Below, piece after piece: positions 336-9,805 of a stretch of 18,084 bases of DNA; positions within the stretch are counted from its first letter, which is position 1; every line of letters begins with the position of its first letter. The stretch is from Candidatus Heimdallarchaeota archaeon. GTDB lineage: Archaea > Asgardarchaeota > Wukongarchaeia > Wukongarchaeales > JBHIFL01. The stretch is from positions 1 through 18,084 of the forward strand of contig JBHIFL010000081.1 of assembly GCA_046761065.1 (NCBI GenBank), read 5' to 3'. The notes beneath the pieces were generated by a model. The model made no database searches. It was not told the origin of the DNA and was given only the letters and a program-made list of their open reading frames with translations. Both the position numbers and the translations under genes were made by a program.

Positions 336-1100
336 CTAACGCAAAAGTCCATTAACATCAATTTCTCTGAGGGTTCGCAATTCCTCCTCTAAAGGTGGTT
401 GGGTTTCTGGAACATGATCTGGAACAACAAGGTTAAATCCTGTTTTTTCTTGGATTTCCTCAATCGTTTTACCAGGATGGACAGATTTCAAGCGCATTCT
501 CAACGTTTGTGGATCGAAATCAAGGGTGGCAATGTCGGTTACAACCAAGCTTGGCCCCCCTCCAGGAAAATTGGCTTTCTCCCACTCTTCTCGTCCGCGG
601 AGAAAGCCAATTCCTGAGCGAAAGTCAAGGGTTTCCACAAAGAGACGAGGCGAATGGGACGTTGTATAAATATAAAATCGCTTTGCCCGGGGGAGGAAGA
701 CAAGACCAATGGTACCGGGTCCTCTAAACTTGGGACGCTTCCAATCCCCAACACCTACGAGGTTGAGGTTACCATACGGATCACATTGGATGCCCCCAGC
801 AAAAAAGAAATCAATACGTCGGTTTTCTATGGCAGAAACATCTTCCAACCGTAAGTACGCATCAGCTCTGTGACTGGCTCGATAACTTGAACTACTTGCT
901 ATGAGCGAACCCCGAGGATTAACACAACCACTTCCGCCTGAGATCCAATTCATATTCGGGGCATGCATCTTTTGAGCCAACTGGCAGGCGGCCATGGGAA
1001 TCGCTGCTGACGCCCCGAGGATGCCCAACTCTCCGTCTTGGATGTCTCGCGCAAAAACAACTGCGATTAGTTCCTGAATTGAATAATCTTCTTTAGCCAT
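336..1100 (-). CDS. Family I CoA-transferase-like beta subunit (GctB/IpdB-like); canonical catalytic Glu apparently absent
   Basis: 254 aa. N-terminus DYSIQELIAVVFARDIQDGE, then HAPN, FFFAGGIQCDPYGNLN, HSPRLFVETLDF, GGGPSLVVTDIA, LKSVHPG..QEKTGF and ETQPP..EELRTLREID, all typical of GctB/CatJ/IpdB. SD GGGGTGA upstream; 4 nt gap from the alpha subunit. Confidence 0.9.
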   Translation of the reverse strand: MAKEDYSIQELIAVVFARDIQDGELGILGASAAIPMAACQLAQKMHAPNMNWISGGSGCVNPRGSLIASSSSYRASHRADAYLRLEDVSAIENRRIDFFFAGGIQCDPYGNLNLVGVGDWKRPKFRGPGTIGLVFLPRAKRFYIYTTSHSPRLFVETLDFRSGIGFLRGREEWEKANFPGGGPSLVVTDIATLDFDPQTLRMRLKSVHPGKTIEEIQEKTGFNLVVPDHVPETQPPLEEELRTLREIDVNGLLR

Positions 1101-1104
1101 CTCA

Positions 1105-1998
1105 TCACCCCTTATACTTGAGAGTATTGAGGTGGTTTAAGCCTCCCACTTCGGTAAGATACTCATAGTGATCTTTAGGGTTGTAGACGTACTTTTCAAG
1201 ATAGGTTGTAAAGGTTTCTGCTTTCCTTGCAGCTAAGGCGTACTTCTTAAAATGCTCAACATCATAATCATAAAGAAATGAAGAGGAGCATGGATGGGCG
1301 GCATAAGGGAGCTTCACAACATGACTCACTAAAAACCCAGGAATCACCATCTGCATGGCATCAGTTTCGTCCTTCTCTTCAATTAACTCGTCACACGTTA
1401 AGATCACTCGCTTGCTTGCCAGTGCCATCACATCATCGACACAGATCGGACCTAGAGGCTGTCCATTCCCATTTGCATCAGCATGTTGGACGTGAAGTAT
1501 GGCAACATCCGGTTTCAGTGGAGGGACTGTGAATACATCAGGCCCCCCATATGGATCTTTTATACGCCGATATCCTTGAGGATTGGCTTTTGGGAGGTCG
1601 GTGTATTCATAACCATATGGTAACGGGATAAATGCGAGATTATTAGCTCCTGCTCGGAGTCCAAAACTTGTGTAGAGTTCACAACATTCCACAATTTCGA
1701 CCTGCCCGTTTTCCACTGCTCGACGATAATTGGGAGCGAGACCAAAAATTTCTAGACTAACGAAAGGGCAGGTAATAGAACGTACAATGCCTGGAACTCC
1801 GCATAACATATCAATTTGTATGCCTAGGGAGATTGAGCCAATCACTGCAAGATCACGTTTTTTTTGGCGGATCAACTCACGAATGGCAACACATGAAGAG
1901 TTGTGCATATGAATACCACCAATCGCGATCGTTGAGCCATTTGGAATGCTATGCACTGCTTCTTCGATAGAACTGAGTTTCGATGACCTTGAAGGCAT
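1105..1998 (-). CDS. Family I CoA-transferase-like alpha subunit (GctA/IpdA-like)
   Basis: 297 aa. Motifs KLSSIEEAV..IPNGSTIAIGG, GLAPNYRRAVENG, LRAGA..LAFIP, PLKPDVAILHVQHADANGN, ASKRVILTCDELI and PYAAHP. SD AAGGAGG upstream. Confidence 0.9.
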   Translation of the reverse strand: MPSRSSKLSSIEEAVHSIPNGSTIAIGGIHMHNSSCVAIRELIRQKKRDLAVIGSISLGIQIDMLCGVPGIVRSITCPFVSLEIFGLAPNYRRAVENGQVEIVECCELYTSFGLRAGANNLAFIPLPYGYEYTDLPKANPQGYRRIKDPYGGPDVFTVPPLKPDVAILHVQHADANGNGQPLGPICVDDVMALASKRVILTCDELIEEKDETDAMQMVIPGFLVSHVVKLPYAAHPCSSSFLYDYDVEHFKKYALAARKAETFTTYLEKYVYNPKDHYEYLTEVGGLNHLNTLKYKG

Positions 1999-2001
1999 CT
2001 A

Positions 2002-2409
2002 TTAGCCTCCTTTAAGGGGTTCAATTACATAGACAGGAGTCTCTCCAACATAATCGAAGGTGATTTTACAGCGCATGCCCAGCGAAATTTCGTCTCTGGT
2101 ACAATTCCGCATTCTGGCAAAAATAAGAGGTCCTTCTCCATCCAGCCGAATACAACCTACAAAATACGGAGGTTTAAATTCCTTTAGCGCAACACCTATC
2201 TCTGTATATGTCTCTAAAACCCCTTCTTTTTTCAATTCAATCCATTCTAAATCGGTATCATAGCACTTCGGACACATATGTCGCGGGGGCCAAAGGGTTT
2301 CATTACATCTCAGGCATCTTGTTGTTGTCAGTTTATGGTTTTTCAAATTCTCCCAAAACTGGTGAATCTTTGTTTTTTCCGTCCAAAGATAGAAAGGGAA
2401 TTTTTCCAT
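2002..2409 (-). CDS. DUF35-family Zn-ribbon/OB-fold protein (acyl-CoA-binding thiolase partner)
   Basis: 135 aa. FWENL..HKL, CLRC..LWPPR.MCPKC zinc ribbon, EGVLETYT, PPYFVGCIRL and ISLGMRC; lies directly downstream of the thiolase. Confidence 0.92.
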   Translation of the reverse strand: MEKFPFYLWTEKTKIHQFWENLKNHKLTTTRCLRCNETLWPPRHMCPKCYDTDLEWIELKKEGVLETYTEIGVALKEFKPPYFVGCIRLDGEGPLIFARMRNCTRDEISLGMRCKITFDYVGETPVYVIEPLKGG

Positions 2410-2429
2410 AATCGACCCACTCCAAATAT

Positions 2430-3593
2430 CTAAACAGAATAGATGTGCACCACATGGTGTGTTGCAAAGCCCGAGAGGTTTTGGGTCAACCCAACCTCCG
2501 CTCCTTCCACCTGTCGCTTGTCGGCTTCCCCACGAAGTTGCTTGACAACATCTACTGCTTGAGTAACTCCCGTGGCGCCGATCGGATGGCCTTTCGATAT
2601 TAGGCCACCGCTGGTGTTGAGTGGAATTGTTCCCCCCAAGTCGGTCTGACCTTCTTCAATCATCTTTCCCCCTTCTCCTTTTTTACAGAATCCGAGTTCT
2701 TCCGTCTCAATGATTTCAGAAATAGAAAAACAATCATGGACTTCAGCCACATCAATATCGTGTGGAGTTTTACTTGCCATTTTATAAGCAGTTTCCGCGG
2801 CTTTCCGAAGTGCATCCCACTCTATCAAATTATGCATATTTGAGGAGATCATAGCTGGTTCAAGAGATTGACCCGAGCCTAAAATCCATACGGGTGTGTC
2901 AGAATACTTTTTTGCAAGATCAGCACGCGTAAGGATAACAGCTGCTGCACCATCACTAATCCCTGAACAGTCTAATAATCCAAGTGGATACGCAATCATT
3001 CGAGCATTTAAGACATCTTCAAGGGTGACTGGGTTTCGATAATGCGCATATTCATTAAGTGATCCAAATTTCTTGCTCTTAACGCCCACCAACGCCATTT
3101 GTTCTCGGGTCGTGCCGTATTTTTTCATGTGGAGTTGCGCCATTAAAGCGAACCCAGCCGGAGCGGTCATGCCTTGACTTGATTCCCATGTTACATCCGG
3201 TACAATACATAAATTGCGAAATGCAATCCCAGGCATTTCATTCATCTTTTCTGCACCGACACAAAGAACAGTGTCAACCATTCCTGCCTTGATGGCAATC
3301 ATAGCATGTCGAATCGCCGTGCCTCCACTGCTACAGGCCATTTCAATCCGTGAAACGAGCTTCGGATAAAGTCCAAGGTACTCTGTGGCCAAATTTGCGA
3401 CATGCGCCTGATCAACAAGCGGCTCCGGTTGGGCAGAGGCTACATATAGTCCTTCAATGTCGTGCGGTGCAAGTTCCCCAGAATCCAAGAAAGCATTTCT
3501 CACCGCATCACCCAACAATTCTCGATAGGAGACATCCTCCCTTTTACCGAATTTAGTCAAGCCTATGGCAACGATGGCAACGTCTGAAGGCAT
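2430..3593 (-). CDS. Acetyl-CoA C-acyltransferase (archaeal/SCP2-type thiolase)
   Basis: 387 aa. VAIVAIGLTKFG, active-site MACSSG, VGAEKM, DCSGISDGAAA, AEVHDCF, NTSGGLISKGHPIGATG and QNLSG (no second Cys, as in SCP2-type thiolases). SD AGGTGA. Confidence 0.95.
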   Translation of the reverse strand: MPSDVAIVAIGLTKFGKREDVSYRELLGDAVRNAFLDSGELAPHDIEGLYVASAQPEPLVDQAHVANLATEYLGLYPKLVSRIEMACSSGGTAIRHAMIAIKAGMVDTVLCVGAEKMNEMPGIAFRNLCIVPDVTWESSQGMTAPAGFALMAQLHMKKYGTTREQMALVGVKSKKFGSLNEYAHYRNPVTLEDVLNARMIAYPLGLLDCSGISDGAAAVILTRADLAKKYSDTPVWILGSGQSLEPAMISSNMHNLIEWDALRKAAETAYKMASKTPHDIDVAEVHDCFSISEIIETEELGFCKKGEGGKMIEEGQTDLGGTIPLNTSGGLISKGHPIGATGVTQAVDVVKQLRGEADKRQVEGAEVGLTQNLSGFATHHVVHIYSV

Positions 3594-3620
3594 TTCATCA
3601 CCTAAACCAACTGATGAAAT
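3592..3620. promoter_or_regulatory. 9-bp perfect inverted repeat overlapping the thiolase SD and start codon
   Basis: ATTTCATCA (3592-3600) / TGATGAAAT (3612-3620) with an 11-nt spacer. Confidence 0.45.
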
Positions 3621-3667
3621 ATCACAAGGCCTTTAATCTGTTTTGTTTGATCATCTGTTAAAAACAC

Positions 3668-3733
3668 CTAGAAAGCTCTTTCAAATCTTCCTTGGTTTTA
3701 GTTATTGATAAAAGCTTTCTAGAGTTGATCAAC
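3668..3733. promoter_or_regulatory. Inverted repeat and palindrome upstream of the thiolase operon (candidate operator)
   Basis: CTAGAAAGCT (3668-3677) / AGCTTTCTAG (3713-3722), followed by the palindrome GTTGATCAAC (3724-3733). Confidence 0.4.
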
Positions 3734-4025
3734 AAGATCACTATGGATTTTTCTTCTAGGATTGATAATAAATTTATATAGATTCCTAGATAAAAGAGTA
3801 ATCAAGTATCCACAACGTAAACGGATCGATATTCTTCTTTTCTTCTATTAAAAGGGTAATCTGAAGATCCTCAAGATACAGGATTTGCACATCTTTTATT
3901 TTCTTTAAAAGGTCTTTTTTCTTAAAAAACTCGCTTACTGCAATTTATAACAGCTCATTTGGTCCCCAAAGGACTTTGGCGAGAGTTTCTGTATAAATAT
4001 TTGAAAAAATAAGAAAGAAAGATGA

Positions 4026-4502
4026 TCAGGCTTCTTGAATGCTTTTTAAACAGGTACGTAACATTTTTGTCAAAACATCAAGCTTTTCGGAACGCTTTTT
4101 CTTTTCAACTTTTAGAGAGTTTACAAAGTTGTTTTTATTTGGGTTTTCTCCAACGATTATGGGTACTGAATCAAGTGCAGTCAGCGTCTCCTCGAGTTTT
4201 AGCACCTCACGCTGTATCTCAAGTAAGTTACCCAACTGTTCTAAGTGTTTCAGCACTAGTCGTGAAACCTTTGTTGGTACATACTTCGTGTTGCGTCCCC
4301 CGCCTTTTTTGGCCAACAGACCCGTCTCCAACAACGCTTCAAGGTGTTTTTGGAGACCAGCACGAGAAATCTCCAGATCTGTCGCAATGTTAACAGGCTT
4401 TTTTTTCTTCAATAATTTTAAGAACATCTCGATCCGGTTTTTAGAACCGAATGCTTTGCACAACTTTGTTACATTCACAATTTGTCCATCTAGTTCTGAC
4501 AT
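4026..4502 (-). CDS. ArsR-like winged helix-turn-helix transcriptional regulator with a helical/coiled-coil C-terminus
   Basis: 158 aa. KAFGSKNRIEMFLKL..IATDLEISRAGLQKHLEALLETGLL..GRNTKY matches the ArsR/HTH_20 pattern. SD AGGTGA. Confidence 0.85.
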   Translation of the reverse strand: MSELDGQIVNVTKLCKAFGSKNRIEMFLKLLKKKKPVNIATDLEISRAGLQKHLEALLETGLLAKKGGGRNTKYVPTKVSRLVLKHLEQLGNLLEIQREVLKLEETLTALDSVPIIVGENPNKNNFVNSLKVEKKKRSEKLDVLTKMLRTCLKSIQEA

Positions 4503-4952
4503 TCTATCATCTCACCTTTTCTCAGACTAACTGGTTTTTAAAAATCAAATAGGATATATCACTTAGATCAATTCTTTAGTTTTTATCGAATTCTTGAAAT
4601 ATTTACATATTTTTTTACTTTTTTATTATTCCATAAGTATAATATTTTTTTTATTTATGTTCTAAACGAAATTTGCAAATTATTAAATCAAATTTTGATT
4701 TTGAAGTGAATATTAATTTTTGTTTTAGATCAATTGTTAGATTTAACAAATTTTATTTTTTTATTAAAAATTTGTATAATTAACAATTTTTACAATAAGT
4801 CAAAATTGATTTTAATGAAGGAAGAACAAATAAGAAACTAGGAGGGATTTCAGCCGGTAAATAACAAAAGAACCCCTAGGTGCTTTGACAATGGAAATAA
4901 CATGTATTTTTCATCTAACGGTCTTTACTGTGTATTACTATTGTATTGACAT

Positions 4953-4972
4953 ATAGTTTACCATAGTTTACC
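4953..4972. repeat. 10-bp tandem duplication
   Basis: ATAGTTTACC x2 just downstream of the acetoacetate-CoA ligase stop. Confidence 0.6.
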
Positions 4973-4982
4973 CTTCAGATCC

Positions 4983-6959
4983 TTATATCCCTTGACGGAG
5001 GTCTGAAAGTATTTTTTCGAAGTAATCCAGCGATTCTGGATTAATTAATGCATCTCTATTGGTGATAGGCTTGCCATGAATTAAGTTAGTGACAGCAATT
5101 TCTACCTTTTTCATACTAAATGTGTAAGGAATATCCGGTGTTTCGAGAATTAATGCGGGTACATGTCTAGGAGATGCCTGTTCGCGTAGAATTCTTCTTA
5201 TCTTATTTTTTAATTCCTCTGTTAAATTATATTTCGGTACAAGTTTGACGAAGAGAATTATCCGTTGATCTCCCTTCCAATTCTGTCCAATTGCCAACGA
5301 ATCTGCAATTTCAGGTAAGGATTCTACGACTTCATAGATTTCGGCTGTACCGATACGTACGCCAGAAGGCTTTAAAACGGCATCGGAACGACCATAGAAT
5401 GTAATTCCACCTGTATCGCTATGAATGACGATGTAGTCACCATGCCGCCAGACATTTTTTCCTATAGGCTGATAGAAATTAAAATACGCCTCTTTATACT
5501 TCTCATTATTTGGATCATTCCAGAAGTACAAAGGCATCGAAGGAGATGGAGCTTCGCAAACGAGTTCGGCTTTTTGATCAACTATGGGATTCCCTTGTTC
5601 ATCATACGCCTTCACCTTCATTCCTAAGGCTAAAGCTTGTAATTCGCCGGCATAAACAGGAAGGAAGGGGCTTCCAATAGCAAAACAACCGTTGATGTCA
5701 GTTCCTCCAGAAATTGAGTTGAAATGTAAATCCGCTTTAATATTTTTATAAACCCATTCAAACCCTTCTGCCGAAAGGGGCGAGGCCGTTTGCGAAATTT
5801 GACGTAACGAGGATAAATCGTACGTCTTGCCCGGTGTAGCACCTATACTGCTTAGATAATAGATATAACTTGCACTGCAGCCAAAGATTGTAATTTTTTT
5901 ATCTTGAACTAATCGGAACATGGTTCCCCAATCAGGGTACAGGGGATTGCCATCGTAGAGCACAATTGTAGTTCCTACCGCTAAAGAACTTATTAGCCAA
6001 TTCCACATCATCCAGCTCGGCGCGGTTATATATGTAATTCTGTCATCTCGTTTTAAATCGGTATGGAGGATCAGTTCCTTTAAGTGGTTTAGAAGGACAC
6101 CTCCGGCACCTTGGACCATGCACTTGGGCTTCCCAGTTGTTCCGCTTGAAAACATAATATAGGCAGGATGATCGAATGGCAATTGTTCAAATTGAAGTGA
6201 TGGCTGCTTTTCTGCTGACAAAAATTCCTCATAATGAATAGCATTAGGAATATTGCTGATATTTGCTTTTTCTGATGCATATGACACTACAATTACTTTT
6301 TCCAACGAGGATATGCCTTTCACAACTTGTTTGGTATTTGGTAATGTGTGAAACGTCTTGTCTTTATAGAAGTAGCCATCCGCTGTAAAAAGAACTTTCG
6401 GTTCAATTTGACCAAAACGATCTAGTACAGCTGATGGTCCAAGCTCAGCACCACAAGAAGCCCAAGTGGCACCAATGCTAGTAGCCGCAAGCATCGCAAT
6501 AACCGTCTCTATGAGATTGGGCATGTACGCGACTACTCGATCTCCAGGATCTACCCCATTCTCACGCAGTGATTTGGAAAGCCAAGCCACTTGATTGTAT
6601 AACTCTGTATAGGTCATCTTTGTGGCCTTTTTTGTTTCTCCTTGAAAAATAAACGCGATGTAGTCATCTCTATATCTTAAGAGATTCTCAGCGAAATTCA
6701 ATCTAGCGCCAGGAAACCATTTTGCGCCAGGAAACCGGTTTAAGTCGTCTACTACCTTATCATAATTATGGGAAGCTTTGATACCAACAAAGTACCATAA
6801 AGCCGCCCAAAAATCCGGTATTTTTTCAATTGACCACTGATATAGTTGTGAATAAGAGTTAATTTGCAGATCATATTTTTTATTGACGAAATTGATAAAG
6901 CGATTCATATTGGTTTGTTTTATTAATTCTTGAGAAGGCTTCCAGAGCAATTTGCCCAT
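4983..6959 (-). CDS. aacS: Acetoacetate--CoA ligase (acetoacetyl-CoA synthetase)
   Basis: 658 aa. LLWKPS, WFPGARLNFAENLL, FSSGTTGKPKC P-loop, WMMWNWL, SISGGTDI, SMPLYFWNDP, VWRHGD, GRSDAVLKPSGVRIGTAEIY, SPRHVP and KKVE are diagnostic of the AACS subfamily of ANL enzymes. Confidence 0.95.
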   Translation of the reverse strand: MGKLLWKPSQELIKQTNMNRFINFVNKKYDLQINSYSQLYQWSIEKIPDFWAALWYFVGIKASHNYDKVVDDLNRFPGAKWFPGARLNFAENLLRYRDDYIAFIFQGETKKATKMTYTELYNQVAWLSKSLRENGVDPGDRVVAYMPNLIETVIAMLAATSIGATWASCGAELGPSAVLDRFGQIEPKVLFTADGYFYKDKTFHTLPNTKQVVKGISSLEKVIVVSYASEKANISNIPNAIHYEEFLSAEKQPSLQFEQLPFDHPAYIMFSSGTTGKPKCMVQGAGGVLLNHLKELILHTDLKRDDRITYITAPSWMMWNWLISSLAVGTTIVLYDGNPLYPDWGTMFRLVQDKKITIFGCSASYIYYLSSIGATPGKTYDLSSLRQISQTASPLSAEGFEWVYKNIKADLHFNSISGGTDINGCFAIGSPFLPVYAGELQALALGMKVKAYDEQGNPIVDQKAELVCEAPSPSMPLYFWNDPNNEKYKEAYFNFYQPIGKNVWRHGDYIVIHSDTGGITFYGRSDAVLKPSGVRIGTAEIYEVVESLPEIADSLAIGQNWKGDQRIILFVKLVPKYNLTEELKNKIRRILREQASPRHVPALILETPDIPYTFSMKKVEIAVTNLIHGKPITNRDALINPESLDYFEKILSDLRQGI

Positions 6960-7020: not shown

Positions 7021-7200
7021 CTACACAGACGCATATCCATTGAGTTTCTGTAAATACGAACTAATATGTAAAGTTCTGATAATATGCAAATTGGCGTTAC
7101 CTATTTTTACATAGTAATACGTTGGATTAAAATTCAGCATCCAACTGTTATATTCAGTTTCACTCTCAGTAAAAAATTTAGTTAGTAAGCACCTTTTCAT
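7021..7200 (-). CDS. Possible small hypothetical protein (59 aa); doubtful
   Basis: ATG at 7200 preceded by AAGGAG about 14 nt upstream, co-oriented with aacS; no recognisable motif. Confidence 0.2.
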   Translation of the reverse strand: MKRCLLTKFFTESETEYNSWMLNFNPTYYYVKIGNANLHIIRTLHISSYLQKLNGYASV

Positions 7201-7386
7201 TGTATGATTTTTCTCTCCTTTTATAAGCCTATCATGTTTTATCAAAAACACCTTTTCTTATGATATATTCAAAAATCTTACTGATAATTATCCTTAGTGC
7301 ATTTTTAAAAGCTTTCCTACCGTTTTCTCACATTATAAAGAAGATGTAGGAAAAAGATCCGAATAAATTCTCTAAATAACCAAATT

Positions 7387-7399
7387 AGAAACTTTTTTA
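7387..7399 (+). promoter_or_regulatory. Putative BRE/TATA promoter of the 7462 gene
   Basis: AGAAAC-TTTTTTA, i.e. a purine-rich BRE followed by a T-rich TATA element, about 63 nt upstream of the start. Confidence 0.45.
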
Positions 7400-7461
7400 T
7401 TGGATGAGAAGCCATCTCTCTTTTGTAGCCGCATAATTGCCATTAGATAGGGGGTACCCCA

Positions 7462-7767
7462 TTGCTTTGTTTTGAGTTTCGTAATCGTGAATTTGTCGAA
7501 GTAAGTGGAACACCTTCAAGCGACATCTATCTGTTAGTAAACCGTGAAAGCGAATCTCTTGAATTACACTTTAGTACAGGAGCAAATCTTATTGAATGTC
7601 GTACTGCTGAACGCCAAGCACGTTCTATCGCAGCCTCGGGAGTTCAACTTGTCACTGGAGAAAGAATTGGTAGAGGGTTCAATCTCACAGTTAATTCAGA
7701 TGGAACTGGTCTTCCTGAACGCTTGAAAAAACCCGTTCCAGAGGCCTATTTCCAGAAAATGTATTGA
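7462..7767 (+). CDS. Small protein with a putative single gelsolin-like domain
   Basis: 101 aa, TTG start with SD GGGGGT. The pattern LCFEF-FVEV-SSDIYLLVN-LELHFSTGANLIECRTAERQARSIA-GRGFNLTV-DGTGLPERL parallels the gelsolin repeat (SxDxFILD..IYVWxGxxSsxxERxxAxxxAxxI..GxxxVxV.xGxEP). It has its own promoter and a T-tract terminator. Confidence 0.7.
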   Translation: MLCFEFRNREFVEVSGTPSSDIYLLVNRESESLELHFSTGANLIECRTAERQARSIAASGVQLVTGERIGRGFNLTVNSDGTGLPERLKKPVPEAYFQKMY

Positions 7768-7815: not shown

Positions 7816-7827
7816 TTTTTTTTCTTT
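7816..7827 (+). terminator. Putative archaeal oligo-T terminator
   Basis: TTTTTTTTCTTT about 50 nt after the 7462-7767 stop, between convergent genes. Confidence 0.45.
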
Positions 7828-7864: not shown

Positions 7865-8902
7865 TTACTCTAAGTGTGAATAAAATTCTAATGGCCTAAG
7901 TTCTTTTAATTTAGTGGTTTTCTGAGTAATATATTTCCTGATATCAACACAAAGGTGGCATTTGGAAATATATCCTTTGCTGCGCTCTTCATATTCAAAT
8001 TCTTTGATGCCAATGTGGTAAAGGGCTTCTATGTCGGTTGTTAAAGCGTTGAGGATTGGATAGTCCTCTAAATTGATCTGGTTGATTGAATTGAGGTTCG
8101 TTGCGTTACCGAGAGAGATACCTGCACAGTAGCCGGGGATGTAATTCCCGTAGTTGTCGATATGGATATGCCATGGTCTTTTCAGTTCGTCTATGCAGGA
8201 TTCGCCGAATAATGTTTTTGGGGGATACTTTCGATATAAATGCCCTAGTTTGTAAGGCACCCGAGCCATTGGGAAAATAGAAGGGTAGCTAAGGCCATAT
8301 TGGAGTCCAAGAGGGTTTTTCTTTTTCATTAAGGAGAGATAATCCCTGAAGGAGAGCGTTTGTTTGATATTAAGGATTCTGAGTTGAGTAAAAAAGAGAT
8401 TGTTATAAACCATCACATTTTCGCCAAAAATTTCTTTTCCTATTTTGATGGCTCGTTCGATTCTTTCAAAAGGGATTTGCTCCACTGTGAAGGGGTTGGC
8501 ACTGAGAAGAATCCCTTTTAACCCCTTAGCTTTTAATTGCTTAAATCGATCTTTTACTTGGTCATCCCTCGTACACCAATAGCAGTTTGTTTCAGTAAAA
8601 GTTGAGGGGATTTGAAGTGATTGGGCAATTTCTGTGAGATTAAGAAGCAAATTGAAGTTTAGAAAGGGTTCTCCACCAGTGAAATGAACTCCATAATTCA
8701 CCCCCACTTTTTCTCCCCCCCAAGGACTTCCTTCGATGCTTCTAGCTAGTTGGGTTAAAATTTGTTCTGCATCTGACTCAGCGAGCCAGTCAGCATTCCA
8801 ATGGGGGGAACAGGCATACATACAGTGCTTACATTCATTAGTGCATTTGTAAGAGAGGAGTATCCCCGCTGAGAATGGTTTTGGTACGGTTAACATTTTC
8901 AT
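7865..8902 (-). CDS. Radical SAM protein of unknown function
   Basis: 345 aa. CTNECKHC (CxxxCxxC), FTGGEPF, ETNCYWC; extra C-terminal Cys residues (ESC, PGYCAG, KCHLC) suggest an auxiliary cluster. SD AAGGAGG. Confidence 0.9.
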   Translation of the reverse strand: MKMLTVPKPFSAGILLSYKCTNECKHCMYACSPHWNADWLAESDAEQILTQLARSIEGSPWGGEKVGVNYGVHFTGGEPFLNFNLLLNLTEIAQSLQIPSTFTETNCYWCTRDDQVKDRFKQLKAKGLKGILLSANPFTVEQIPFERIERAIKIGKEIFGENVMVYNNLFFTQLRILNIKQTLSFRDYLSLMKKKNPLGLQYGLSYPSIFPMARVPYKLGHLYRKYPPKTLFGESCIDELKRPWHIHIDNYGNYIPGYCAGISLGNATNLNSINQINLEDYPILNALTTDIEALYHIGIKEFEYEERSKGYISKCHLCVDIRKYITQKTTKLKELRPLEFYSHLE

Positions 8903-8938: not shown

Positions 8939-9805
8939 TTACAAATACTCTTCTCTTCTTCGTAGGATCTGGTTCTCCAGTGCTTTGGCAAAATTTTGGT
9001 CATTAAAAGCTTTCAATCGCTTGATCGTTGTATCGTATCTATCGATCTGTTCCTCTTCCAAGGTTGTGGAATAGTTTGCAGCAGGGTCAATCTCCTCTAA
9101 CCTGTTAATTAGGGTCCTCCGCTCATCATCTGGCATCACCTTTGGATCCGTCATCGCAGCTGCTCTAACATAAATTCCTTCATCAAGAAGAGATTTTAGG
9201 GCTTTGAAGGGGAGTTCATAGTATTTCCCGATGGCGCCAGTTCTTTGAGTAAAGCCTTCGGAGGTTGCGGCCTTAAATGAGATGCGAACATAGAGTTTAT
9301 CTTTAAATTCAGCTAACTGTTCTACAAAATTTTTGTCATAGCCAAGAAGGACCCCATTCGTTTCCAAAATAAATAGAGGATACTTTGAGTTTGCTACATA
9401 ACGCAGGACTGCTAGAAGATGGTACTTTCCTAAAGTTGGCTCGCATCCAGAGAGACGTAATTTGTCTACTTGGAGGTGTCGAAAACGTTCCCAACCGGGA
9501 GCGGTTATTCCCTCCTTTGCGGCTTTAAACAGCCTGTTGGCTAGCCTCTTGGGAGAGTAAAACTCGCCAAACCTCTCTGGAAAATCCCTTGACCAATTCG
9601 CCCAACAGTAGAAGCAACGCAAACAACACCCGGCTGCATAACCCGTTGCAATCCCTCGGTATACTGGGGCGGAGTAAACTCCAACATATTTTCTCTCTAA
9701 TCCCTCAGACCCTTCTCTAGTTACTATCCGCTCCGTCTCCCTCGTCAACTCGATTGGGTCGAAAGGTTGAAACCCAGGAGTCAAGAAACGTTGATATTCC
9801 GTCAT
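8939..9805 (-). CDS. Radical SAM protein (archaeal COG5014-like Fe-S oxidoreductase)
   Basis: 288 aa. YRGIATGYAAGCCLRCFYCW, FYSP, LRLSGCEPTLG, FILETNG.LLG and VRISFKA..EGF.QRTGA. SD GAGGT. Confidence 0.9.
   Translation of the reverse strand: MTEYQRFLTPGFQPFDPIELTRETERIVTREGSEGLERKYVGVYSAPVYRGIATGYAAGCCLRCFYCWANWSRDFPERFGEFYSPKRLANRLFKAAKEGITAPGWERFRHLQVDKLRLSGCEPTLGKYHLLAVLRYVANSKYPLFILETNGVLLGYDKNFVEQLAEFKDKLYVRISFKAATSEGFTQRTGAIGKYYELPFKALKSLLDEGIYVRAAAMTDPKVMPDDERRTLINRLEEIDPAANYSTTLEEEQIDRYDTTIKRLKAFNDQNFAKALENQILRRREEYL

Follow-up and report, generated by a model that had tools for sequence, protein, structure and literature searches.

The window analyzed here is an 18,084-nucleotide stretch of DNA from a Candidatus Heimdallarchaeota archaeon (contig JBHIFL010000081.1 of assembly GCA_046761065.1), and its plus strand carries a gene for a 101-residue protein that structure prediction identifies as a stand-alone domain of the gelsolin/ADF-H fold. 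The gene is real, conserved, selectively constrained and of an expressed type, and its host is an Asgard archaeon related to the Heimdall and Hod lineages. On sequence comparison, the protein fails both the PF00626 and the ProGel tests and belongs to a separate, divergent family, here called RTAERQARS; we conclude that this family branched off from the Asgard gelsolin domain and diverged strongly, losing the WxG motif and gaining a longer, glycine-punctuated loop. The explanation that we favor overall, with moderate confidence, is a constrained Asgard gene whose product, a diverged gelsolin-fold domain standing alone, would dock on actin through its long helix. As to actin binding itself, we lean only slightly toward it, and the RTAERQARS protein may be one more candidate regulator of the archaeal actin cytoskeleton.

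Predicted fold

AlphaFold2 was run twice, on alignments of six and of 56 sequences, and the two models share one topology: four strands, a 17-residue helix (residues 43-59), a small hairpin, a strand at residues 74-79, a short helix at 86-89 and a floppy tail. The predicted local distance difference test score (pLDDT) was 78.6 with six sequences (block means of 84-90 for residues 1-80) and 78.9 with 56, where all five models reached at least 71. In both models the loop after the long helix is built as the small hairpin (residues 61-62 and 68-69), and the tail, with pLDDT below 60 from residue 81 on, is predicted to be disordered; a conserved aromatic residue closes it (Y96 and Y101). The first-pass annotation of this gene, made from the letters alone, had seen in it the strand and helix pattern of a gelsolin repeat with an insert after the long helix and a short C-terminal tail. 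The models match the pattern (four β-strands, long helix, β-strand, short helix), and the insert and tail correspond to their longer loop and disordered end. They also contain the five- to six-stranded mixed sheet between a long and a short helix that characterizes the gelsolin fold.

Structural searches converge on the same superfamily. Foldseek against the PDB ranked the Thorarchaeota ProGel/actin complex 7c2f first (E 7e-4), and among the matches listed 50 of 50 were gelsolin-superfamily entries. A scan of 48,161 chains with VIA-align, which is independent of Foldseek, also placed 7c2f at the top for both models, with Z 9.2 (root-mean-square deviation 2.1 Å over 72 residues) and Z 9.8 (2.6 Å over 73). 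Gelsolin G1-G4, adseverin, villin, fragmin and the two-domain gelsolins (2DGels) of Loki, Heimdall and Thor lineages followed at Z 6-8.3, and ADF-H and Sec23 domains at Z 4.5-6.1, with unrelated folds starting at Z ≤4.7; for the second model, gelsolin, ADF-H or Sec23 domains made up 33 of the 34 top matches. The single-sequence model of the ESM Atlas (predicted template modeling score 0.64) falls on gelsolin domains and Asgard clusters as well, and a language-model feature search in the same resource returned Asgard clusters, with PF00626 carried by 18 of 30 matches. The fold, on which the annotation had staked its reading beforehand, thus came out gelsolin-like in both AlphaFold2 models and in the ESM Atlas model, with ProGel 7c2f as the nearest structure. 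Third in the feature search came a cluster (score 0.93) that groups 109 hypothetical proteins of 88 residues from viruses (Uroviricota) and may represent a gelsolin-fold protein of Asgard viruses or a chance neighbor.

Homology to canonical gelsolins

The 101-residue protein matched nothing in Pfam (E ≤1), NCBIfam or PHROGs, and phmmer found no match for it among PDB sequences, including ProGel 7c2f_B at E ≤10. As judged by profile comparison, homology to bona fide gelsolin domains is transitive only, running through 1DGelX-like Asgard domains. These belong to a second widespread Asgard group, proteins of 240-330 residues found with one query in 125 of 151 genomes, whose N-terminal domain combines the gelsolin xWLWxG with the RRTALRQAES helix, G.GY turn and IGRD strand of the query family. 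The bridge was probed with strictly disjoint sets, A8 (55 sequences of the query family) and A7 (15 1DGelX-like domains), which hhalign aligned with 98.4% probability (E 5e-15) over 60 columns covering residues 20-80. The A7 profile in turn matched PDB sequences of villin (1.1e-7), ProGel 7c2f_B (9.1e-6), gelsolin (4.8e-5), Loki 2DGel (8.7e-5) and Heimdall 2DGel (1.1e-3), and 30 of its 32 PDB matches at E ≤1 are members of the gelsolin superfamily. Because both links hold, A8 to A7 and A7 to the PDB, we take the query family to be homologous to canonical gelsolin domains. Single open reading frames are also weakly matched by PF00626 and by the family profile alike, namely C48 in the window's own genome (16.9-18.9 bits to PF00626, for which the gathering score is 21 bits) and two in genome G023 (C1:79.4k and 1552.4k).

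Through these alignments, the conserved long-helix segment of the family pairs with the RRTALRQAES helix of 1DGelX-like domains and, via A7, with the ProGel helix. The strand before it reads L-H-F-S in the query, WLWxG in A7 and IWVWxG in canonical Asgard gelsolins, and F36 stands where 1DGelX-like relatives carry the W of xWLWxG, bearing out the earlier remark that the WxG is replaced.

The RTAERQARS family

The family signature is [RK]RTAERQARSIAKSGF...G.R.G.GF.L...P[DE]RL. Across 55 sequences R51, A53, G60 and G70 are invariant, and R47, A49, P85 and L88 are conserved in at least 90%. The query matches the A8 profile over its full length (E 6.9e-34, from a profile that includes the query), and independent phmmer matches extend down to 29% identity. 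HMMER over 1.84 billion cluster representatives gave 31 matches, two of them repeat artifacts; P0012 and P0031 were rejected as relatives, being repeat-driven false positives. Pfam on the 31 relatives returned coiled-coil noise only.

Family members occur in three forms: (i) stand-alone proteins of 90-125 residues; (ii) proteins of 150-560 residues that begin with a long coiled coil and finish with the domain, the last residues being RLLRDQHKY; and (iii) in one genus, C-terminal fusions to a 2DGel. The architecture of the second form suggests dimeric cross-linkers. Its order is the reverse of that in published 1DGelX, where the domain comes first and the coiled coil after. In many members a coiled coil of 100-460 residues precedes the gelsolin-fold domain; examples are L015:694-1791, L016:100-1785, P0016, P0018-P0020, P0022, P0023, P0034 and P0035. 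The third form is exemplified by L107:339-1586 (G258:C1), a protein of 415 residues composed of a 2DGel, a proline-rich linker and a C-terminal family domain. Its two-domain part scores 68.9 bits to PF00626 in two stretches and its family domain E 3.9e-23, so that the protein would, as predicted, hold three gelsolin-fold domains in a single archaeal chain. Open frames of 387-411 residues with the family domain are present in six more genomes of that genus (G061, G101, G106, G118, G135 and G138). Akil et al. 2022 described a 409-residue Heimdall 2DGel with an unexplained 193-residue C-terminal extension (PMC9433394). The fusion, which agrees with it in length, may correspond to this protein.

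A strict count (profile E ≤1e-18, genome completeness of 85% or more) places the family, frequently with two copies, in 46 of the 121 Asgard genomes that were sampled and in 22 of 47 genera. Nearly all genomes of some Asgard families have it (25/27, 7/7 and 6/7), and at this threshold it was found in none of the 26 and none of the 14 genomes of others; matches of lower significance there (1e-11 to 1e-17) may represent members that have diverged more. A looser tally of 262 of 301 genomes (E ≤1e-5) was overstated, since the profile cross-detects 1DGelX-like domains, and was replaced by the strict one. Every named homolog comes from an Asgard lineage and every one is called 'hypothetical protein', which, with the missing Pfam, NCBIfam and PHROG matches, agrees with the view of the first-pass annotation that this is a divergent subfamily lacking an informative annotation. 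The 90%-identity cluster to which the 86% homolog belongs has members named Candidatus Hodarchaeota or Heimdallarchaeota archaeon, and more distant homologs belong to Thor-, Odin-, Njord-, Hod- and Ranarchaeia.

The gene and its expression signals

The open reading frame was recovered exactly as first drawn (Table 1), and it contains all of the peptide strings then quoted: SSDIYLLVN, GANLIECRTAERQARSIA, HFS, SGVQLVTGER, LTV and DG..LPE. A word-indexed search of 5.8 billion proteins returned five homologs that cover the protein at 100% with 61-86% identity; aligned with the query they leave 46 invariant columns. The ratio of nonsynonymous to synonymous substitution rates (dN/dS) is 0.19 against the 86% ortholog (locus L009) and 0.09 against the 63% ortholog (locus L011). 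The TTG start of the query aligns with the ATG start of the L011 ortholog; at L009 the gene caller added an N-terminal extension of six residues that begins inside the ribosome-binding site, and the start there is therefore likely the same TTG. Full-length homologs, the dN/dS values of 0.09-0.19 and the aligned ATG start together argue for a real gene and not a chance open reading frame.

Upstream, AGAAA-nn-TTTTTATT is invariant and at a fixed distance from the start in the window, L009 and L011, and GGGGT (7451-7455), within the Shine-Dalgarno-like element, is invariant across the same three loci. From archaeal promoter architecture we infer a candidate promoter at 7387-7401. The run of eight T residues sits between the gelsolin-fold gene and a convergent radical-SAM gene. 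The B recognition element (BRE) and TATA box, Shine-Dalgarno sequence and oligo-T that the gene had been credited with are thus all present, the upstream ones being conserved at three loci, and as working signals they are putative. Rfam had no match anywhere in the window, and the GC content around the gene is only 35%.

Proposed actin binding and alternative explanations

In gelsolin G1 and in ProGel the long helix contacts actin. As the likeliest mechanism we propose that in the RTAERQARS protein this helix, with R47, T48, R51, Q52 and S55 exposed, would dock in the actin cleft between subdomains 1 and 3 in the manner of ProGel and gelsolin G1. The single-domain form would be a weak side-binder, a sequesterer or a bundler of actin; relatives with an N-terminal coiled coil would cross-link actin as dimers, and in the fusions with a 2DGel the domain would supply a third actin-binding module. 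The protein is a candidate for such a role because (i) its nearest structural relatives are actin-bound domains; (ii) conservation in the family peaks at the helix that corresponds to the actin-contacting one; (iii) fusions join the domain to an actin-regulating 2DGel and to coiled coils, the latter an architecture of dimeric cross-linkers; (iv) family genes lie near a 2DGel gene in two genomes and upstream of a Ras-family GTPase gene in two lineages; and (v) the window's own assembly encodes two actins, a 2DGel beside a Ras-family GTPase and further one-domain gelsolin forms. A shared binding site on actin is described for ProGel in PMC7444086, which also gives ProGel no calcium sites. As to a possible calcium site (D...E), D21, E45 and E50 are kept in six close orthologs, with a register to the canonical Ca2+ ligands that is ambiguous by one residue, and could there mimic a type-2 site, which pairs an Asp ahead of the central strand with a Glu where the long helix begins; in the wider family the D21 position is mostly G, S or T and E45 varies, and the site is not a conserved feature of the family.

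Several observations weigh against an actin-binding gelsolin relative. A six-frame scan of the whole assembly with PF00626 (E ≤1) listed C80, C162, C48 and C64 but not C81; a PDB search with the family profile A3 (E ≤10) recovered no gelsolin, its only matches being chance ones to Switch-activating protein 1 at E of about 0.1; and hhalign gave a probability of only 0.2% for A3 against 31 canonical Asgard gelsolin domains and of 2.2% for family alignment A4 against one 92-residue ProGel-type protein. The latter weak alignment keeps the register originally proposed, SDIYLLVN..HFS..ECRTAERQARSIA pairing with EVFVLDD..IWIG..QRFNAARLSEKLD. The xWxG/DWG motif common to ProGel and 2DGel (PMC7444086) is absent from the query. 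The exposed face of the conserved long helix is rich in arginine and not hydrophobic. Sec23/24 gelsolin-like domains are also among the structural matches, and the fold alone gives no function; the gelsolin-like domain of Sec23/24 is not known to bind actin. The conserved neighbors of the closest orthologs are metabolic (acetoacetyl-CoA-synthetase-like protein, thiolase, CoA transferase), and the adjacency to a GTPase gene, seen at two to three loci, may be fortuitous, Asgard genomes being rich in small GTPases.

Some of these points would fit a gelsolin-fold domain that no longer binds actin and has been re-used as an adaptor for another partner, such as a small GTPase, a membrane or coat component (the case of Sec23/24) or another filament. 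We regard this as possible yet doubtful. The loss of the gelsolin hallmark motif and of direct profile similarity, the basic face of the conserved helix, the Sec23/24 domains among the structural matches and the Ras-family GTPase genes directly downstream in L037 and L109 all speak for it; but the best matches are the actin-bound ProGel and G1-type domains (Z 9.2-9.8), with Sec23/24 only at Z 4-6, family domains occur in fusions with an actin-type 2DGel and with coiled coils, an arrangement known from actin cross-linkers, and the closest relatives in sequence, the 1DGelX-like proteins, resemble, and may belong to, the 1DGelX class that severs actin in vitro (PMC7444086).

The metabolic surroundings raise the thought of an accessory or regulatory protein of the neighboring acetoacetate/acyl-CoA utilization cluster, which we consider very improbable. 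A divergent arrangement with the acetoacetyl-CoA-synthetase-like gene, across a gap of ~480-500 bp, is kept in the window, L009 and L011; these three loci, however, are closely related (61-86% identity), so the synteny may be mere inheritance, it does not extend to other lineages, where family members have quite different neighbors, and neither the fold nor the fusions found in the family point to CoA metabolism. A chance open reading frame or mis-called gene in an AT-rich intergenic region, to which the TTG start, short length, low GC content and missing family-library matches might point, has next to no plausibility in view of full-length homologs in many genomes, dN/dS ratios of 0.09-0.19, confident folds and conserved upstream signals. 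A small basic nucleic-acid-binding protein was ruled out by residue count, the net charge being about -1.

Host genome

The assembly that contains the window measures 4.42 Mb in 234 contigs and is 91% complete with 8% contamination. It encodes two full-length actins (454 and 445 bits to PF00022), which share 93% identity; with the actins encoded by other genomes in the phylum their identity is 69-84%. A canonical two-domain gelsolin, whose gene has a Ras-family GTPase gene (L004:1878-2489) behind it, and a one-domain gelsolin with an acidic tail are present as well. True actins (two), a 2DGel and Ras-family GTPases in the assembly, together with the taxa named for the homologs, confirm the Asgard source suspected from the gene alone. 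The actin genes lie at L001:352-1491 (-) and L002:1477-2616 (+), and given the 8% contamination the two intact copies could be paralogs or could come from two strains; a third, actin-like fragment, L003 (C20), contains four stop codons in its frame. C-terminal extensions are found on at least three more gelsolin-fold proteins of this genome: L013:1435-2187 (C61), L014:1429-2223 (C48) and G000:C33:1008-1256. The C61 protein carries the RRTVERQARSIAK helix of the family without a WxG, and the C48 protein reads IWLWLG. Counting the query, the 2DGel, the C162 protein and the three extended forms, the genome has six or more gelsolin-fold genes.

Gene neighborhood

Upstream of the gelsolin-fold gene, positions 336-6959 on the minus strand hold a conserved acetoacetate/acyl-CoA-use cluster (Table 1) that is syntenic in L009 and L011. 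In the intergenic region of ~500 bp, positions 7210-7235 form a second conserved block containing TTTATA (TCCTTTTATAAGC.TATCA), common to the three loci, which may serve as a promoter for the divergently oriented synthetase gene or as a site for a regulator. An open reading frame of 76 residues (7021-7251, minus strand) overlaps this block; it has no Pfam match, and no gene is called there in L009 or L011. Downstream, two adjacent radical-SAM/4Fe-4S genes (7865-8902 and 8939-9805, minus strand) are convergent with the gelsolin-fold gene; the pair is absent from L009 and L011, where ABC-2 transporter genes stand instead.

Elsewhere in the family the neighbors are of another kind. In G023 and G012, two closed or near-closed genomes, a family gene lies 1.2 kb from a 2DGel gene, and a Ras-family GTPase gene follows a family gene directly on the same strand, with gaps of 28-30 nucleotides, at L037:1812-2390 and L109:646-999. 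L037 and L109 represent two unrelated lineages, and a third GTPase gene near a family gene is L022:2158-2685. Together with the GTPase gene behind the canonical 2DGel of the window's own genome, this may reflect a pairing of gelsolin and GTPase genes or chance, given the many GTPases per genome.

Table 1. Features of the gelsolin-fold gene, its product and the upstream gene cluster, in window coordinates
Feature	Position	Strand	Remarks
Coding sequence P0002, single-domain gelsolin-fold protein (predicted)	7462..7767	+	TTG start, 101 residues, TGA stop
Predicted gelsolin-fold core, residues 1-82	7462..7707	+	Strands 2-7, 10-14, 22-27, 32-37; long helix 43-59; strand 74-79
Long helix, residues 43-59, LIECRTAERQARSIAAS	7588..7638	+	Most conserved segment of the family; counterpart of the gelsolin G1/ProGel actin-contacting helix
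Family-specific conserved loop G60-x5-G66-x-R68-x-G70-x-G72	7639..7680	+	Follows the long helix; longer than in canonical gelsolins
C-terminal part: short helix 86-89 (P85-E-R-L88) and low-confidence tail	7708..7764	+	pLDDT 40-57
Promoter-like element: purine-rich BRE-like AGAAAC, then TATA-like TTTTTTATT	7387..7401	+	Candidate; ~60-65 nucleotides upstream of start codon
Shine-Dalgarno-like GGGGGT	7450..7455	+	Putative; 6 nucleotides before TTG start
T8 run, candidate archaeal terminator	7816..7823	+	49 nucleotides after stop; read directly from sequence
CoA-transferase subunits, two	336-1100, 1105-1998	-	
DUF35-type zinc-ribbon/OB protein	2002-2409	-	
Thiolase-like protein	2430-3593	-	
Winged helix-turn-helix regulator	4026-4502	-	
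ACAS_N + AMP-binding synthetase (acetoacetyl-CoA-synthetase-like)	4983-6959	-	

Comparison with known proteins

Among Asgard gelsolins, Akil et al. 2020 describe ProGel, with a single domain, and 1DGelX, with a domain and an extension (PMC7444086), and 2DGels are known and partly characterized (PMC7444086, PMC9433394); 1DGelX is reported to sever actin in vitro (PMC7444086). A 2026 study that relied on InterPro counted as many as nine 'gelsolin homology' proteins in a genome and recovered five of them in Lokiactin pull-downs (PMC13716822).

Like Thorarchaeota ProGel (PDB 7c2f), the RTAERQARS protein is an Asgard protein of ~90-100 residues with one gelsolin/cofilin-fold domain only, in the same strand-helix order and without the extra helices of cofilin. 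Identity in the structural alignment is nevertheless 12%; ProGel keeps a DWG-type motif (..IYLWRG..) where the query has LHFS; an invariant signature spanning helix and loop (RTAERQARS..G.....G.R.G.G), along with a conserved C-terminal tail, sets the query family apart; and ProGel has been shown experimentally to bind actin, for which the query is a candidate. Since genome G040 carries both a family gene and a separate 92-residue PF00626-type single-domain gelsolin that matches 7c2f_B (E 3.8e-4), the RTAERQARS family and ProGel are distinct paralogous types.

The 1DGelX-like proteins (e.g., L105:497-1330) are the closest relatives outside the family, sharing the RRTA.RQA.S helix, the G.GY/F turn and the IGR(D/G) strand. 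They keep the xWLWxG and a C-terminal extension of ~150-200 residues, both of which the query lacks, and their profile, unlike that of the query family, matches ProGel, gelsolin and villin directly. They resemble, and may be, the 1DGelX proteins of Akil et al. 2020, for which the text of that paper gives no accession.

With the PF00626 repeats of eukaryotic gelsolin and villin (G1-G6) and Asgard 2DGel, the query shares a long helix packed on a mixed sheet (Z 6-8.3), and it differs from them in having no hidden Markov model match at E ≤1, no WxG, a longer loop after the helix, a single stand-alone domain and, across its family, no conserved type-2 Ca2+ ligands. With ADF/cofilin (ADF-H) it has the superfamily fold and the single-domain architecture in common; ADF-H domains, in contrast, span 120-165 residues with additional helices, whereas the query model has the ProGel-like core only, and there is no sequence match between them.

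Significance

Asgard actin is thought to be regulated mainly by profilins and gelsolins. The RTAERQARS family escapes the Pfam gelsolin model, yet it is present across many Asgard lineages. A literature search found no description of it, and its members may already be flagged by the structure-based signatures of InterPro (Gene3D, SUPERFAMILY). Published counts of Asgard gelsolins rest on sequence or InterPro matches (PMC7444086, PMC9433394, PMC13716822). A far-reaching version of our proposal, which we consider rather unlikely, would make the RTAERQARS proteins a third, ancient class of gelsolin-fold regulators of Asgard actin missed by sequence censuses, comprising single-domain filament binders, coiled-coil cross-linkers and natural 2DGel fusions with three gelsolin folds, and marking a prokaryotic step toward the three- and six-domain gelsolins of eukaryotes.

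The finding lengthens the list of candidate regulators of Asgard actin and overturns nothing. If these proteins do bind actin, the Asgard repertoire of actin regulators would exceed present counts, an identity could be given to the unexplained extension at the C terminus of some Heimdall-type 2DGels, and a protein with three gelsolin folds would exist in archaea; if they do not, the gelsolin fold would have been re-used before eukaryotes arose.

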